From contig OZ237743.1 of the NCBI GenBank assembly GCA_965178125.1, positions 434,001 through 498,000 of the forward strand: a stretch of DNA of 64,000 nt, written 5' to 3'. The DNA comes from Bilabrum cf. latius. Taxonomy: Eukaryota. A model generated the notes under the pieces. It ran no database searches. It saw nothing but the letters and a program-made list of their open reading frames with translations, and was not told the origin of the DNA. Shown one piece after another: positions 1 to 13,887 of this stretch (positions are counted from its first letter, which is position 1; the number at the start of each line of letters is the position of its first letter). The position numbers and the translations under genes were made by a program.

Positions 1-41
1 TTTTATTTTTTGGTCAAGCTTTTTATAAAAGCTTATAGTAA

Positions 42-1223
42 ATGAAAACTGCTAAAGTGAATGCTCTTATTCAGCAAGCCCTAGAGAGGGAACTTGACAA
101 TGCTAAAATGTTAGATTTACAGGCAAGGGACGACGTAGATTTAGAAACAGAATATAGTGATTTTATAAGGAAAAGGGCAAAAATTGAACGATTAAAAGAA
201 AGTGGAAGGTATGGAACTCCAGCGTAGAGAAAATAGGCAGACCAAAGCAACGAGGAAATCATATCTAAGTCAATATCTGGTATAATGAAAGGTATTATTG
301 AGGGTAAAAATGTAAGTCCAGCAGTGAAAGCATTGAAGGATTTTGTTGGTAATATCAATATGTCTCCACAAATGAAGCAACAACTAGCCCGTCAATACGT
401 AAATATTGAGAGATTTCAAAGGAAAGGCTACGAAGGACTGCAGAGAGTTCCAGCTGAAGACAGAAAACAACTCTTAGAATTAGGGAAAGTTATATAGGAG
501 GCATCCGGACAACGAATACCGTAGGGAATGTTGGGAATTGATTAGTAGCCAACATCTTTACAAACACCTGCTCGAACAACAAGAAGAAACACGTTTTCCG
601 CTCCAACACAAGTACAGCTTCCAGAAAAGGGTTCGATTGCGTATAAATAGTTATTGGAAAGAGCCAGAGAAAGAATACAACAAGACAGACCCTTAACTGA
701 AAAACAACGAATAGCGTGGGATTTAGAATAGGGAAAGAACTTCTCACAAAGAACATCACAGGGACAGACAAATATGTTTTAGCATTTTCCAGAGGGTTCA
801 AGTAGTAATGCGTCAAAAACATCAAAAGACTTAGATGCCATATTAGCCGCAGCGAGCAATGAAAGACCACTACCGCAAGGAAGCACTCCGGGGGCGTGGG
901 ACCCAGAAACTGGTGAGTACTATGATATGCCGAGTAGGATAGAAATTGAGCAGGGAATTGGAAAACGTGCTACTAGACCTGTGTAGCGATTTACGGGGTT
1001 TAGTCCGCCCTATGGAATGTAGTAGCCTGATTTAGAAGACCCACCATCACGCGCAATGACTGTAGAAGAAAGTGGAAAACCAAAAAAGGGGAAAGGATTA
1101 CGAGGTGGAAAAAGGATTATCTATGATACAGCAATGAATGTAGCCAAGAAAGTAAAAGGAGCCGATAAAGATATTCATCATTAGGTTGCTATGGAACTAT
1201 TACATCTTTTAGGAAAAGATTGA
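42..1223 (+). CDS. Virophage hypothetical protein, 393 aa, putative core protein (TAG=Gln)
   Basis: ATG42 to TGA1221-1223 with about 13 in-frame TAG and no TAA/TGA. Preceded by TATAGTA. Basic C-terminus KKGKGLRGGK. Confidence 0.8.
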
Positions 1224-1288
1224 CCAAAACCTCTTATTTACATCTTTTGGCAACCTGATAAAAATTATTTCTGTGGATATACTATAAA

Positions 1289-1780
1289 ATGTCAGTTTCA
1301 AATCTTCTATCTAAGAACAGTCTAGACCTTATGTCTCAAACTATTACGTGTAATGTTGTGAGTAGCGACGCAATTAAAGTGTCCGCAATTACTAACTCTA
1401 CGGGAGCAGTCATAGGCAATCCAAGTATTGAATTCAAAGACGGAGAGCCTTATATGGAGTGGGGTGAAACTGTTCTACGGTTTGGAAAAAACGGAGCGTC
1501 TGCTGGTTGTCAGTTCAGTATGAGCGAAGAAGGAGAAAGATGCGATATTTCACTAGTTGGTTCATTCAAGACTTCTCAAGAGGGTGTTGTTGGGCTGAGT
1601 GAGGTTGCTGGAGCTACATTGGCTGACGCTTCTACCCCTATTAATACGTCAGCAGAGCGAAAGTTCAAGGGCGCTTTAGTGTATAATGGAAGCGACAACG
1701 ATGTCTATGTGGCGATTGGCAGTTCTTCTACATCTAGTTGGAAATCCTTAGTGTCAGGTTCACTTATTACACCATCTTAA
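1289..1780 (+). CDS. Virophage hypothetical protein, 163 aa, S/G-rich (possibly structural)
   Basis: Complete ORF from ATG to TAA immediately upstream of the penton gene, preceded by ACTATAAA. No recognisable motif. Confidence 0.7.
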   Translation: MSVSNLLSKNSLDLMSQTITCNVVSSDAIKVSAITNSTGAVIGNPSIEFKDGEPYMEWGETVLRFGKNGASAGCQFSMSEEGERCDISLVGSFKTSQEGVVGLSEVAGATLADASTPINTSAERKFKGALVYNGSDNDVYVAIGSSSTSSWKSLVSGSLITPS

Positions 1781-1836
1781 TTATACTTTAGAAAAGTAAT
1801 CAAACCCACCCCATAATTATAAACGTCTATAGTAAA

Positions 1837-2946
1837 ATGAGTTCTCCAGACCGATTTTACATTACCGCAAACATACGAAATAACGAAGATACTTTCCAAC
1901 CAGCGACCTATAGCGAAACCCGCAAGTAGCCATTATTAGATAAGGATGTTGGTGATTATACGATGTCAGTATTCCGGTTTTCCATAAGCACCAATTCAAT
2001 ACCTTTATGGGTTCCACACATAGAAACCGATAAAGTGAAAAATCCATCTTCAAATCCTAATCAAACGGTGTATAGAATTAGCATTACAGATGAAAGTGGA
2101 GTACAATTATGGACGGAAAGTATTATATGGAGACCCTAGTTAACAGGGGAAAACCAACCATCTTTTTCCAATCCTATGTAGTTTGTTCCTTATTATTATA
2201 TGTATTCCGTGTAGCATTTTGTTGATTTATTCAACGAAACCCTATAGAACGCTTTATCAGCGGATATTACATCAGTTCCGGTTTTACTATTCAAAGATGG
2301 AAAGTTCAGTTTAGTAGCAAACCCCGATTACGACGAGGAAAACTCAGGACAAAAATTTAAATTAGTGTTGAATGAAGCCCTTAACGAACTGATGACGGGT
2401 TTTCCTATGGAACGAATGGATATCCAAGATGACGACTTATACGCCAGTATTCTATTCAAAACCCTAGGAACCAATGTTTTATTCGATGATGGCTCTTCTG
2501 TTGGAAAATATGAACCTTAGGCATACTTCGAGGGAAACCCAACGGGAGACTACAGATTAATGATGACCTAGGAACGAGGGAGTTTAGTGTAGTTTTAGAT
2601 TTTTCGCGGAATAGTTTTCACATCTTCAAGTCTTCCAGTGAGGAGTGAGGCAATATCCTAGAAATCCGCCTATGGACAATCCACAAATACAGATTAGAAT
2701 TCAGGTTCAGGGACCGAGAGTTTATTAGTGGATATGGACTGTGTATTAGATGACACTGAAACAGTTAATTAGTAGGTTCTTCAATACCAGCCCCATATTC
2801 TCCACGAAATTGATTTTTTAGATACACATTCAGTAGATAGGATTTAGTTTAATCTTTATTGGAAAGATAATTATTCAAATCTAAGACCTCTTTATTTACG
2901 CCACGGAAGTGTGAGTGTGAAGTTTTTAATTTAGAAACGGAAGTGA
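1837..2946 (+). CDS. Virophage minor capsid protein (penton), 369 aa (TAG=Gln)
   Basis: Manual translation: MSSPDRFYITANIRNNEDTFQPATYSETRKQPLLDKDVGDYTMSVFRFSISTNSIPLWVPHI...RGIVFTSSSLPV...NLYWKDNYSNLRPLYLRHGSVSVKFLIQKRK-TGA. These motifs match the virophage penton pattern. Only TAG interrupts the frame, and the gene lies directly upstream of the MCP. Confidence 0.88.
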
Positions 2947-3051
2947 AATTAGTTTTGTATTACTTTTATGAAGAAACGAGTTTGCGTTCTTTTCTAAAGA
3001 ACTGAGTGATAGAATTTTATTCGTTGTATATAATATACAAGGAAAACAAAA

Positions 3052-12507: not shown

Positions 12508-12529
12508 TTGCTATATAGTTGTATCATTC

Positions 12530-12552
12530 TCCTTACTTTTGTAAAGTAGGGA
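12530..12552 (-). terminator. Intergenic hairpin TCCTTACTTT-TGT-AAAGTAGGGA, candidate transcript 3'-end signal
   Basis: 10-position inverted repeat (one imperfect pair) with a 3-nt loop, just downstream of the 79-aa ORF. Similar CTTT(T)-NNN-(A)AAAG hairpins at 16-34, 1784-1798 and 2986-3002. Confidence 0.4.
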
Positions 12553-12572
12553 AAATAATTCTTGGGAAAAAA

Positions 12573-12812
12573 TCATTTGGTTTTGGTACTTTCGTGCCAT
12601 TCAACTACAATTTGACTTAAATCTTTAGCTTCCTCAAAGTCAGCAAGCAGGTCATCGTCATCATCATAATTAATCCAAATAATAGTCTTTGTAAATTCAA
12701 GGTACTTTTTGGCCATATCGTATGCTTCTCGTGTTGTAATAAACGGGACTGATTTAAGACATTCTTTGGTCGCCAAGATGTAATTCTCGAGTTCCTTTTG
12801 TGATTTTGCCAT
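12573..12812 (-). CDS. Virophage hypothetical protein, 79 aa
   Basis: Complete ORF from ATG to TGA, preceded by the same bipartite upstream motif as polB and the helicase. Confidence 0.75.
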   Translation of the reverse strand: MAKSQKELENYILATKECLKSVPFITTREAYDMAKKYLEFTKTIIWINYDDDDDLLADFEEAKDLSQIVVEWHESTKTK

Positions 12813-12858
12813 TTATGTGGTTGTACTATAGACTACGTAAGTTATGCTTAAGGTACGA
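12813..12858 (-). promoter_or_regulatory. Bipartite upstream motif TCGTACCTTAAG-N9-CGTAGTCTATAGTA (79-aa ORF)
   Basis: 12-mer at 12847-12858, ~35 nt upstream of the ATG. Confidence 0.7.
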
Positions 12859-12859
12859 C

Positions 12860-13887
12860 ATTTCCACTTTAGGCAATCAATTTTTGTGTTTTTAATTGGA
12901 AAACAATTATAATTTGTTTTTTATTTTCCTTTTAATTTTTATGGTGGCATCATAGGAATTACAACATTTAATTTTAATAGGGAACTTAATTTATTTTTTC
13001 TAAGTCTCTTATAATTGACCTGTAAAATTGACAAGTTTTTTGGGGACTTTTCGAAAGGGACTTAAAATACGTTTTCGTTTTCCTTTTAATTTTTATGGTG
13101 GCATCATAGGAATTACAACATTTAATTTTAATTGGAAAATATATTTATTCTTTCTAAGTCTCTTAAAATTGACCTGTAAAATCTCTCAATTTTAATCTTT
13201 GAAAAAGATATCAAAAGAGCGGAGGGCAAAGCCCGAGCATCTTGGGGGACTTTTCCAAAGGGACTTAAAATACGTTTTCGTTTTCCTTATAATGTATCAT
13301 CTCTTGGGTAATCGGTTTGGTTGCTTCGGAGAACAATTTAGTCGCTTGGGAAATCCTTGGGAAATCCTTGGGAAATCCTTGGGAAATCCTTGGGAAATCC
13401 TTGGGAAATCCTTGGTCGGTTCATCGGTCGGTTCATCGGTCGGTTTATCGGTTTGTCGCTTGGGAACATACCTCGGTCTCTTGATAAAATACCTTGTTCT
13501 CTTGGGGAAATCCTCGGTTGGTCTCTTGGTCTCTTGGGAATTCATCCTTCCGTTCCTACAGCAAACACAGAGATATTTTGGACACTTGGTTAATTTCTTC
13601 ATTTTTTCCTACTTTACTAAAACATCTCTGTCTTTGCTGTTAGAGTTTATAAGGGGGTTAAATATTAGAATTCTTCAATTTACCCCTACTTCGTAGGAGT
13701 AAATTTTATATCTGAAAATGGGTACATAGAGGGGTTCTATAGGGGTTCTTGGGGAACCCCCTGTGAAATCATTTAGGTTTATAGGGGAAACACTTGAGTT
13801 GCTAAATATGCCTTTAAAGGAGGGGCGAGCGTAGCGTAGCCCTCGTCCTAAACGCTTGGTGTACCTACCACCACCTGTTGTCCCCCC
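12860..13887. repeat. Non-coding right terminal region of the virophage (probable terminal inverted repeat)
   Basis: About 1 kb without a credible gene. Internal direct repeats (~12924-13028 vs ~13078-13182; ~13042-13086 vs ~13245-13288), tandem repeats, hairpins at 13677-13705 and 13742-13760, and a terminal C-run. The matching left copy is outside the window. Confidence 0.6.
13345..13455. repeat. Tandem repeats: (CTTGGGAAATC)x6 followed by ~3 copies of GGTCGGTT(C/T)ATC
   Basis: Read directly from the sequence. Confidence 0.95.

Follow-up and report, generated by a model that had tools for sequence, protein, structure and literature searches.

The window analysed here is a stretch of 64,000 nucleotides (nt) from Bilabrum cf. 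latius (contig OZ237743.1), and its subject is the element that occupies positions 1–13887. The GC content of this stretch is 38% overall (36–41% along its length) and that of the remainder of the window is 55–68%, with a sharp step from ~0.35 to ~0.6 near 13.8–13.9 kb. The stretch carries virophage-type genes in which TAG is read as a sense codon, an observation that is real and is confirmed here. It is very probably the right-hand 13.9 kb of a virophage genome that is inserted in the chromosome of a GC-rich protist. An earlier reading, made from the sequence alone, had described an intact, potentially reactivatable virophage recoded to the genetic code of its host. The core of that sequence-only reading stands, namely a virophage-type element joined to cellular DNA, TAG as glutamine, and a host flank in which TAG is a sense codon, while four of its points do not hold as worded.

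Gene content of the element

When TAG is taken as glutamine, the stretch contains 11 ATG-started open reading frames (ORFs) of 90–613 aa plus one 79-aa ORF, eight on the + strand and four on the − strand, with spacers of 20–105 nt. Frameshifts are absent from these genes. Read in the standard code, the same DNA yields only fragments of at most 211 aa. The features are listed below, where L002 denotes a metagenome locus that is related to the element.

1..41, + strand: region upstream of ORF1; an in-frame TAA at 39–41 closes the frame before the ATG at 42, and the element continues past the left edge
Directly before the ORF1 start (within 1..41), + strand: promoter-like motif TTATAGTAA
42..1223, + strand: ORF1, 393 aa, 13 TAG, stop TGA, basic C-terminal tail; 42% identity to a 490-aa ORF of L002
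1289..1780, + strand: ORF2, 163 aa, no TAG, stop TAA; N-terminus like that of a 395-aa L002 ORF, by eye
1837..2946, + strand: penton (minor capsid) protein, 369 aa, 15 TAG, stop TGA; PF21507
3052..4821, + strand: major capsid protein (MCP), 589 aa, 15 TAG, stop TGA; PF21915 and PF22031
4877..5494, + strand: ORF5, 205 aa, 4 TAG, stop TGA, with a P-loop (GSGKT) and a hydrophobic N-terminus
5521..6801, + strand: ORF6, 426 aa, 11 TAG, stop TAA; central domain with invariant His and Asn-Cys
6822..7463, + strand: ORF7, 213 aa, 9 TAG, stop TGA; without family match
7505..7777, + strand: ORF8, 90 aa, 3 TAG, stop TAA
7834..9675, − strand: protein-primed family B DNA polymerase, 613 aa, 5 TAG, stop TGA; PHROG 1907
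9733..11394, − strand: superfamily 3 (D5/primase-type) helicase, 553 aa, 10 TAG, stop TGA; DUF5906
11452..12600, − strand: retroviral-type integrase with C-terminal chromodomain, 382 aa, 6 TAG, stop TGA; rve and Chromo
12573..12812, − strand: ORF12, 79 aa, no TAG, stop TGA; overlaps the integrase start, promoter-like motif upstream
12813..13887: non-coding right terminal region with spaced direct repeats of 154 nt and 203 nt and an 11-nt tandem array

The capsid genes identify the element as a relative of Sputnik. The MCP matches PF21915 (E 8.2e-25) and PF22031 (E 2.4e-27), both over cut-off, and among solved structures it matches Sputnik V20 (3j26_A, E 2.8e-30, residues 24–490) and the mavirus MCP (6g45, E 1.1e-5). 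The penton protein matches PF21507 (Sputnik V18/19; E 5e-9, 35.8 bits against a cut-off of 27) and the Sputnik minor virion protein (3j26_N, E 2.4e-13). On the opposite strand, the polymerase matches PHROG 1907 (E 6e-13), and its motifs A, B, and C are recognisable by eye as YDINSFYPS, KEILNNIWG, and YVNTDG. The helicase matches DUF5906 (E 3.3e-15), the VapE-like family (E 1.4e-5), and PHROG 1156 DNA primase (E 4e-19), with the Walker A motif SPQGTGKS in place by eye. The integrase matches rve (E 1.7e-9) and Chromo (E 6.7e-6), both over their cut-offs, and the residues of its D..D..(34–35)..E signature are in place in the translation, also by eye. In all likelihood, the element combines a Sputnik-type capsid module (MCP and penton) with a mavirus/Polinton-type replication and integration module (polymerase, superfamily 3 helicase, and rve-chromodomain integrase).

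Reading of TAG in the element

The use of TAG as a sense codon is evident from the distribution of stop codons. Across the 11 larger ORFs, the 3996 in-frame codons include 91 TAG but neither TAA nor TGA, and the two other frames of the same genes contain 136 TAG, 221 TAA, and 230 TGA. In-frame TAG occurs in 10 of the 12 ORFs, all but ORF2 and ORF12, and the genes end in TGA (nine) or TAA (three) and never in TAG. The longest frame in the element measures 211 codons in the standard code versus 619 when only TAA and TGA stop, and ORFs of at least 150 aa cover 0.23 of the stretch in the standard code versus 0.98 with TAG as sense. For a standard-code virophage used as a control (L005), the coding cover is 0.78 under either code. 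TAA is still a terminator, as it is never found in frame although CAA is used 103 times, and it closes the three genes noted above. TAG makes up 38% of the glutamine-type codons of the element (91/237). This share is 43% in the capsid-side genes of the + strand (42–7777) and 27% in the replication and integration genes of the − strand (7834–12812), a difference that could stem from strand composition or from different histories of the two modules.

The counts given by the sequence-only reading (12 genes ending in TAA or TGA, ten with in-frame TAG, 15 of them in the MCP) are right, and the motifs that it quoted are found, NNIWGSLC[TAG]KNT in the polymerase and LRE[TAG]IRELQKQVA[TAG]Q[TAG]E in the helicase tail. 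The TAG codons are not base-call errors of one assembly, given that contigs from two public sequencing runs of two studies cover all 30 depth bins of positions 1–17000.

Relatives of the element and the identity of the TAG amino acid

Relatives of the MCP were sought in a full scan of 1.84 billion representative proteins (E ≤ 1e-3), which yields 2274. Full-length relatives outside the TAG-using group are 23–32% identical, and the closest relatives (47–70% identity) are six fragments of 133–270 aa. Two database fragments, P0003 and P0082, stop exactly before the window's TAG at MCP residue 384. Full-length calls of the TAG-using lineage with Q at TAG sites also exist (P0153 and P0154, from one large public protein collection), so some gene-calling pipeline has already read their contigs with TAG as glutamine. 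In IMG/VR, a scan with the single MCP gives four pattern matches and no relative, and a scan with a four-sequence MCP alignment gives 79 pattern matches, of which one is a relative (26% identity, standard code) and none is close. The earlier expectation that standard-code pipelines would miss such an element is borne out in part: IMG/VR is without a close relative and many database relatives end at TAG, but P0153 and P0154 are present at full length with Q. Surveys in the standard code undercount these elements because the closest library relatives are TAG-ended fragments and IMG/VR lacks any close one. At least five MCP lineages 42–70% identical to that of the window occur in metagenomes and in several sequenced organisms.

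Searching metagenome contigs with an alignment of 128 conserved MCP residues returns four loci (L001–L004) out of 431 pattern matches, with MCPs 64–65% identical to that of the window. All four need TAG as a sense codon. Their summed ORFs of at least 150 aa come to 357, 971, 154, and 596 aa in the standard code versus 1898, 4593, 547, and 3262 aa with TAG read through. L002 (13 kb, 44% GC) has seven genes in common with the element in syntenic order at 42–63% identity: ORF1 42%, penton 54%, MCP 63%, ORF5 57% (likewise located after the MCP gene), ORF6 51%, polymerase 61%, and helicase 56%.

These seven gene pairs, aligned with TAG masked as X, indicate which amino acid TAG stands for. At seven sites TAG is present in both the element and L002. 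The 82 remaining partners of TAG are Gln in 23 cases (CAA 15, CAG 8), Lys in 13, Glu in 7, Ser in 7, Thr in 6, and others in at most 5 each. TAG faces 10.4% of the aligned Gln positions, 3.0% of the Lys positions, and less of any other residue, and Gln fits the partner profile best of all residues by 39 log-likelihood units. The sites at which L002 keeps TAG include the motif B site of the polymerase, WG(S/T)LC[TAG]KNTITKT, and the MCP sequences SIAT[TAG]T and LDVD[TAG]TNGS. In a variant copy of the element found in two public runs (X4 and X5), a penton TAG is replaced by CAA, a change at two positions that would be synonymous only with TAG as Gln. These comparisons show that TAG serves in the element as an ordinary glutamine codon, with TGA and TAA as stops.

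The code belongs to a whole virophage lineage and is long established in it, because environmental relatives only 42–63% identical also use TAG. The description of the element as recoded is therefore unsupported: those metagenome relatives already use TAG, some at the same sites, so that no change after integration is involved.

Reading of TAG in the host flank

To the right of the element lies DNA of cellular type, 50 kb of which was examined for its code. The features that bear on the code and on the junction are the following.

13888..19065: host flank, 99.92% identical over 5178 nt to 22803–27980
22797..22808: unoccupied paralogue of the insertion site (22802/22803), in the adjacent repeat unit
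55573..57411, + strand: host gene of a RagC/Gtr2-type GTPase with six in-frame TAG; PF04670

The RagC-type frame matches Pfam PF04670 (E 5e-40) and human RagC (E 5.9e-45). One of its TAG codons (55963–55965) is located inside the G domain, in SPHETMFLE[TAG]S between the P-loop and DxxG, with conserved sequence on both sides in one frame. Frames free of TAA and TGA reach 1433 codons in the flank versus at most 514 in 30 shuffles of it, and the host frames of 1284–1433 codons carry 10–11 TAG each. Paralogous genes of the flank provide a second comparison, for which two copies identical to others were dropped. TAG is present in at least one copy at 34 columns and throughout at five of them, and the 35 alternative codons at these columns are CAG (8), CAA (5), AAG, GCT, TCC, and GAT (2 each), and others found once. 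TGG, TAC, TAT, and TAA do not occur there, and at CAG columns TAG is the commonest alternative. In seven host frames TAG accounts for 18% of the glutamine-type codons (50/283), and TAA is the stop of one of the four host frames whose stop codon was checked.

The host thus appears to use the same code as the element, with sense use of TAG indicated by the RagC-type gene and the frame lengths, and glutamine indicated by the exchanges between paralogues. Judged from the sequences of both, element and host follow the pattern of NCBI table 15, in which UAG encodes Gln and UAA and UGA are stops. In a database search that scored 8000 candidates and found 2 proteins, the RagC-type protein comes closest to one from Cafeteria roenbergensis (40% identity).

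Junction and copies of the element

Element and host meet at 13887/13888. A paralogous copy of the flank (22803–27980) is without the element, and what precedes 22803 there bears no relation to the end of the element. Because the homology of the flank starts at 22803, the element ends at 13887 and the other near-identical segment represents an unoccupied site. The end coordinate of the sequence-only reading is exact, with paralogue homology beginning at 13888 and contigs of public runs breaking there. The near identity of the two flanks points to a recent insertion, and 12813–13887 is probably a terminal repeat. The features of an integrated virophage that are seen are thus the rve integrase and, in one assembly, the right junction with an unoccupied homologous site.

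Public sequencing runs of five studies hold at least part of 11000–16500, and the runs of two of these studies hold 92–95% of the sampled words. Four runs (X4, X5, X7, and X9) were compared with positions 1–17000, in terms of word depth, which is not copy number. In X4 and X5, all 30 bins are covered, and contigs end at 13887 or begin at 13888. In X7, a 492-nt contig over 13386–13888 continues for at least 255 letters into a different sequence, so the element terminus abuts other DNA elsewhere. X7 and X9 have no cover over most of the element body, from which no inference is drawn. None of the public runs listed as holding element sequence is an RNA run. Word depth on the element versus the flank is ~460–800 versus 112–144 in X4 and 19–38 versus 6–7 in X5.

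Contigs of X4 and X5 differ from the window by 216 single-letter changes. Among the 40 listed, 30 changed codons comprise 19 synonymous changes (with TAG as Gln), 11 non-synonymous ones, and no stops. The gene-bearing part has only two small indels: a 3-nt one that keeps the frame and a 1-nt one in an intergenic spacer. Because of the word depth and the clustered variant letters, several copies or variants of the element are probably present in the organism. The 55-nt intergenic stretch 7779–7833, a local duplication, is skipped by crossing contigs of X4 and X5 at full depth, which means that the main variant in these runs lacks it. At the right end, 13042–13887 has several times the word depth of the gene part in X4 and X5, and contigs run into it from elsewhere, with loose ends at 12874 and 13194; this segment may be shared by several element families or be present as solo copies.

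Extent of the element, promoter motif, and proposed working

L002 offers a guide to what lies beyond the left edge of the window. Two ORFs stand between its ORF1 homologue and its penton gene. One, of 327 aa, has a P-loop (Walker A and B recognised by eye; AAA_22, E 4e-4); in the other, of 185 aa, His, Asp, and Cys follow, again by eye, the order of adenain-like proteases. The 185-aa ORF has no family or PDB match; its matches to repeat proteins concern a 24-residue stretch, none passing alone, and are treated as an artefact. Counterparts of the two ORFs are missing between ORF1 and the penton gene of the element, and judging from the arrangement in L002 the ATPase and protease genes probably lie to the left of the window. 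The earlier suggestion that the ATPase, the protease, and the left terminus are to be found upstream fits L002, which has candidates for both genes near its penton gene. The word intact is not supported for the element, which is cut by the first base of the window; one terminus and two of the four core genes of virophages are not in view. P0153, a protein identical to 81% of the window's MCP, suggests that the full element is shorter than ~19.5 kb, since its contig is 19,492 nt long.

A short motif precedes most genes. TATAG[TA]A has 22 matches in the element, nine of which, belonging to 8 of the 12 genes, are on the same strand as a start codon and no more than 40 nt before it, compared with 0.38 expected. 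The forms found before gene starts in 1–12860 are (T)CTATAG(T/A)A or TATAGTA, and the motif also precedes seven of nine L002 genes. From its placement, it looks like a shared promoter. The genes of mavirus and Sputnik carry the late promoter of their helper. A second motif, TTTGGTCAA(G/T)CTTTT..., recurs in both orientations at 8–31, 1206–1229, and 7829–7850, that is, at the left edge and at the 3′ ends of ORF1, ORF8, and the polymerase gene; the direct repeat 7779–7799 / 7834–7854 belongs to the same set. It may be a transcript-end signal.

The proposed working of the element is as follows. The integrase would insert the genome, with its chromodomain tethering it to chromatin. The genes would be placed under the shared TATAGTA promoter, which the cell would not use and a helper giant virus would recognise. 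Translation would proceed on host ribosomes, with a glutamine tRNA that reads UAG and a release factor that ignores it, and the helper giant virus would face the same ribosomes. In a standard-code host the element could not be expressed, as 10 of its 12 genes would be cut short. The claims that the element is reactivatable and that its helper giant virus uses the same code go beyond what was found, the sole hint being the promoter-like motif before most genes.

Alternative explanations

Several observations weigh against an integrated virophage that shares a TAG-reading code with its host. As the element is cut at window base 1 and its left terminus is outside the window, it may be incomplete, and its insertion may not be a clean one. 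Neither a packaging ATPase nor a maturation protease is recognised in the visible 13.9 kb, and no terminal inverted repeat or target-site duplication is visible in the window, which includes the right end only. Dependence on a giant virus is not evident, the element having its own polymerase; this polymerase reaches 23.5 bits with PF03175 (E 3.2e-5), under the cut-off of 25.8, and no exonuclease motifs are found in it by eye. With regard to the code, the TAG columns of 143 distant MCPs (23–30% identity) score −3.8 for Q and −4.4 for E, where a control of true Gln columns scores only +4.5. Human RagC has Ser at the position of the G-domain TAG, a site that attests sense use without naming the amino acid, and a tRNA scan finds no tRNA genes in the window. 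At the junction, none of the contig pieces listed bridges 13887/13888 in X4 or X5 (369 others stand outside the listing), so that the join rests on the window's own assembly. Moreover, if the cultures contain virophage DNA in free or episomal form, this could also explain the 4–6-fold word depth on the element.

Three alternatives concern the code. Read in the standard code, all the large genes are interrupted, and the variant copy has CAA at one TAG site, a pattern that had been named beforehand as a sign of decay; the stretch might then be a pseudogenised insertion in which the TAGs are nonsense mutations gained after integration. However, the genes contain 91 in-frame TAG and not one TAA or TGA, even though in the two other frames both TAA (221) and TGA (230) outnumber TAG (136). 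The genes are also free of frameshifts, seven TAG sites are kept in a relative 42–63% identical, and the variant copies differ mostly synonymously, with no stops among the 40 differences listed. The stop-codon asymmetry already refutes decay, which has practically no chance of being correct. It is extremely unlikely that the virophage alone reads TAG as sense within a standard-code host, as phages with TAG as Gln are known to do in standard-code hosts (PMC9523058). The greater share of TAG among glutamine-type codons in the element (38% versus 18% in the sampled host frames) would agree with such a division, but the host needs TAG as sense in the RagC G domain and in its frames of 1284–1433 codons, it exchanges TAG with CAG and CAA, and neither a tRNA nor a release factor is encoded in the visible part of the element. 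A different amino acid, Lys or Glu, or an ambiguous reading is very unlikely. After Gln, TAG pairs most often with Lys (13) and Glu (7), and distant homologues place Glu almost level with Gln; against this, Gln leads both by 39 log-likelihood units in the comparison with L002, CAA is a frequent partner in element and host although it is two changes away from TAG, and no element gene ends in TAG.

Two further alternatives concern the nature of the element. The element would not be integrated if the contig had arisen by an assembly error between a repeated host region and virophage DNA in free or episomal form. The 4–6-fold depth in X4 and X5, the contigs that break exactly at the junction with no listed piece bridging it, and the repeated nature of the flank itself all speak for such an error. 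A break is nevertheless expected, because De Bruijn contigs must break at a repeat boundary, and the element encodes an rve-chromodomain integrase, the X7 contig over its last 500 nt continues into other sequence, and runs of two studies hold 92–95% of the words of 11000–16500; on balance, an artificial join is unlikely. Somewhat more weight, though still with doubt, is given to an autonomous Polinton-like integrating virus that has no need of a giant virus. Such a virus would have its own polymerase, helicase, and integrase, as this element does, and would fit both the lack of any helper virus sequence seen and the several copies or variants that seem to exist, as for a transposon. On the other side, almost the whole of the MCP and of the penton aligns with Sputnik proteins, and one short motif stands before most genes here and in L002, the arrangement of mavirus and Sputnik genes under the late promoter of their helper. 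An integrated Sputnik-type virophage that shares the code of its host remains the preferred interpretation.

Other genes of the element

ORF1, ORF2, ORF7, ORF8, and ORF12 have no significant match in family profile searches; the best match of ORF1, TipAS, is sub-threshold at E 0.053. ORF5 has only sub-threshold AAA matches and an NCBIfam match to the Sll1717-type P-loop (E 1e-4), and it shows no similarity to the 327-aa P-loop ORF of L002. PDB sequence searches with ORF5, ORF6, and the polymerase give nothing usable.

In the central domain of ORF6 (residues 125–335, window 5893–6525), the His and the Asn-Cys are invariant in four aligned sequences. The structural model of ORF6 has a predicted local distance difference test (pLDDT) score of 63 and a predicted template modelling (pTM) score of 0.61. 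A fold search other than Foldseek, in which Z below 8 can arise by chance, ranks DUF862 deSUMOylase (Z 6.1), CLN5 (5.6), Aichivirus 2A (5.3), TseH (5.0), YiiX (4.8), a Bacillus cysteine peptidase (4.8), and PLAAT4 (3.5). The best Foldseek match is PPPDE1 (E 0.13). These matches, the top six rows and the seventh (PLAAT4), are all what we take to be permuted papain-like hydrolases. Because the fold matches agree with one another and the His/Asn-Cys motif is present, the domain is probably a permuted papain-like hydrolase of the PPPDE/LRAT/NlpC-P60 kind. By the same model, ORF6 could be a lipid- or peptide-cleaving virion protein. The C-termini of ORF6 and ORF7 (6700–6798 and 7365–7460) bear similar basic tails, ...LRG+G.SK..AL+.AW..., and the ORF6 homologue of L002 has the same tail by eye. 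Long basic C-termini are also seen by eye in ORF1 and the MCP.

Residues ~115–220 of the polymerase (window 9000–9330) contain EHNDCLYNA ... NGHYKYV, which is kept in L002 and resembles an OTU-type cysteine protease by eye. The N-terminal half of the polymerase has no Pfam match, and a model of its N-terminus (330 aa, two sequences) has a pLDDT of 48.8, too poor to use.

Other features of the flank

The flank from 13888 to 51000 is a tandem array of diverged units, with paralogue pairs 83–99.9% identical. Each unit is composed of one subtilase-like gene of 1250–1284 aa and two further gene families without assigned function. Beyond the array, a 1433-codon frame on the − strand (51057–55358) consists of a BCS1-type AAA ATPase (PDB BCS1, E 6e-61), a SAM domain, and a C-terminal part paralogous to the 496-aa ORFs of the array; proteins in the Atlas that resemble the ATPase part belong for the most part to giant-virus clusters and give no indication of the host. 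That the flank is itself a giant-virus genome was considered and rejected, on account of the RagC/Gtr2-type GTPase and leishmanolysin genes that it contains and of the chromodomain in the integrase.

The leishmanolysin-type peptidase (E 2e-26) is represented at 58703–60838 (+ strand), which matches the C-terminal half. The upstream frame 57351–58592 is without family match and ends in HEMM. If this frame is the N-terminal part, the two pieces, which by eye are in two different frames, suggest an intron or a frameshift between them. Rfam searches at gathering scores give no match in the window.

Implications

Virophages multiply only in cells infected by giant viruses. They use host ribosomes and, as far as is known, the transcription machinery of the giant virus, and for this reason a virophage lineage in a non-standard code ties three partners to one code. 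It is possible, although we hold this only tentatively and at somewhat less than even chances, that the virophage clade has co-evolved with a GC-rich protist lineage (UAG as Gln, UAA and UGA as stops) and points to undiscovered giant viruses that cope with this code and probably use it themselves. If so, the code would act as a host-range wall around a three-partner system and hide that system from standard annotation. The lineage also gives a handle for finding helper viruses, as giant-virus contigs with in-frame TAG in the same samples, and would help to identify the host group. In nuclear genomes, reassignment of UAG alone is rare, and UAA and UAG usually change together. The host is thereby a new case for how a release factor tells UAA from UAG.

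Comparison with known systems

Integrated virophages are known, such as mavirus in Cafeteria and those of Bigelowiella. The biology of mavirus is reportedly that set out by Fischer and Suttle in 2011, Fischer and Hackl in 2016, and Hackl in 2021. Like the mavirus provirophages of Cafeteria, the element is a virophage of low GC within the high-GC chromosome of a protist. Both have an rve integrase, a protein-primed polymerase, a superfamily 3 helicase, indications of more than one copy, and a short promoter motif in front of most genes. Unlike mavirus, its capsid genes are far closer to Sputnik (E 2.8e-30 versus 1.1e-5) and its TAG codons are all sense. The host, moreover, is not Cafeteria itself, the RagC-type GTPase being only 40% identical. 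With Sputnik and with lake and metagenomic virophages, the element shares both MCP Pfam domains and the penton match; it differs from them in being integrated, with an integrase and a polymerase, and its full-length non-TAG relatives are 23–32% identical.

Reassigned codes have been described in other viral systems. According to the passages on Streblomastix strix in Bellas et al. (2023, PMC10120064), its endogenous viruses use the host code with TAA and TAG as Gln, which is read there as a sign of a long virus–host association, and stop codons in endogenous viral elements are often taken for decay or assembly error. The element resembles those of Streblomastix, as these passages present them, in being an integrated DNA virus of the Polinton/virophage realm that follows the reassigned stops of its host. 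In the Streblomastix elements, however, TAA and TAG are both reassigned and the MCPs fall in a “Metamonada group” that was seeded from Trichomonas, whereas here the MCP is Sputnik-type and TAG alone is reassigned. In crAss-like and Lak phages with code 15 (TAG as Gln), portions of two papers (PMC9523058, PMC11165621) describe a code that differs from those of the hosts and is used as a regulatory device. The codon and its meaning in the virus are the same as here, but unlike in those phages, virus and host agree in their code. Among giant viruses, metagenome genomes (GVMAGs V2) are best read with alternative codes in some cases, code 15 being tallied in the legend of Extended Data Fig. 3 (PMC13524828). 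In the parts of that paper bearing on the codes, giant viruses of stop-reassigned hosts probably exist, and no link to virophages is drawn (PMC13524828). Full-text literature searches found no paper on a virophage with a reassigned stop codon, although supplements, which these searches did not cover, may hold more. Set beside these systems, what is new is a Sputnik-type virophage lineage, both integrated and metagenomic, in a code that reassigns TAG alone.

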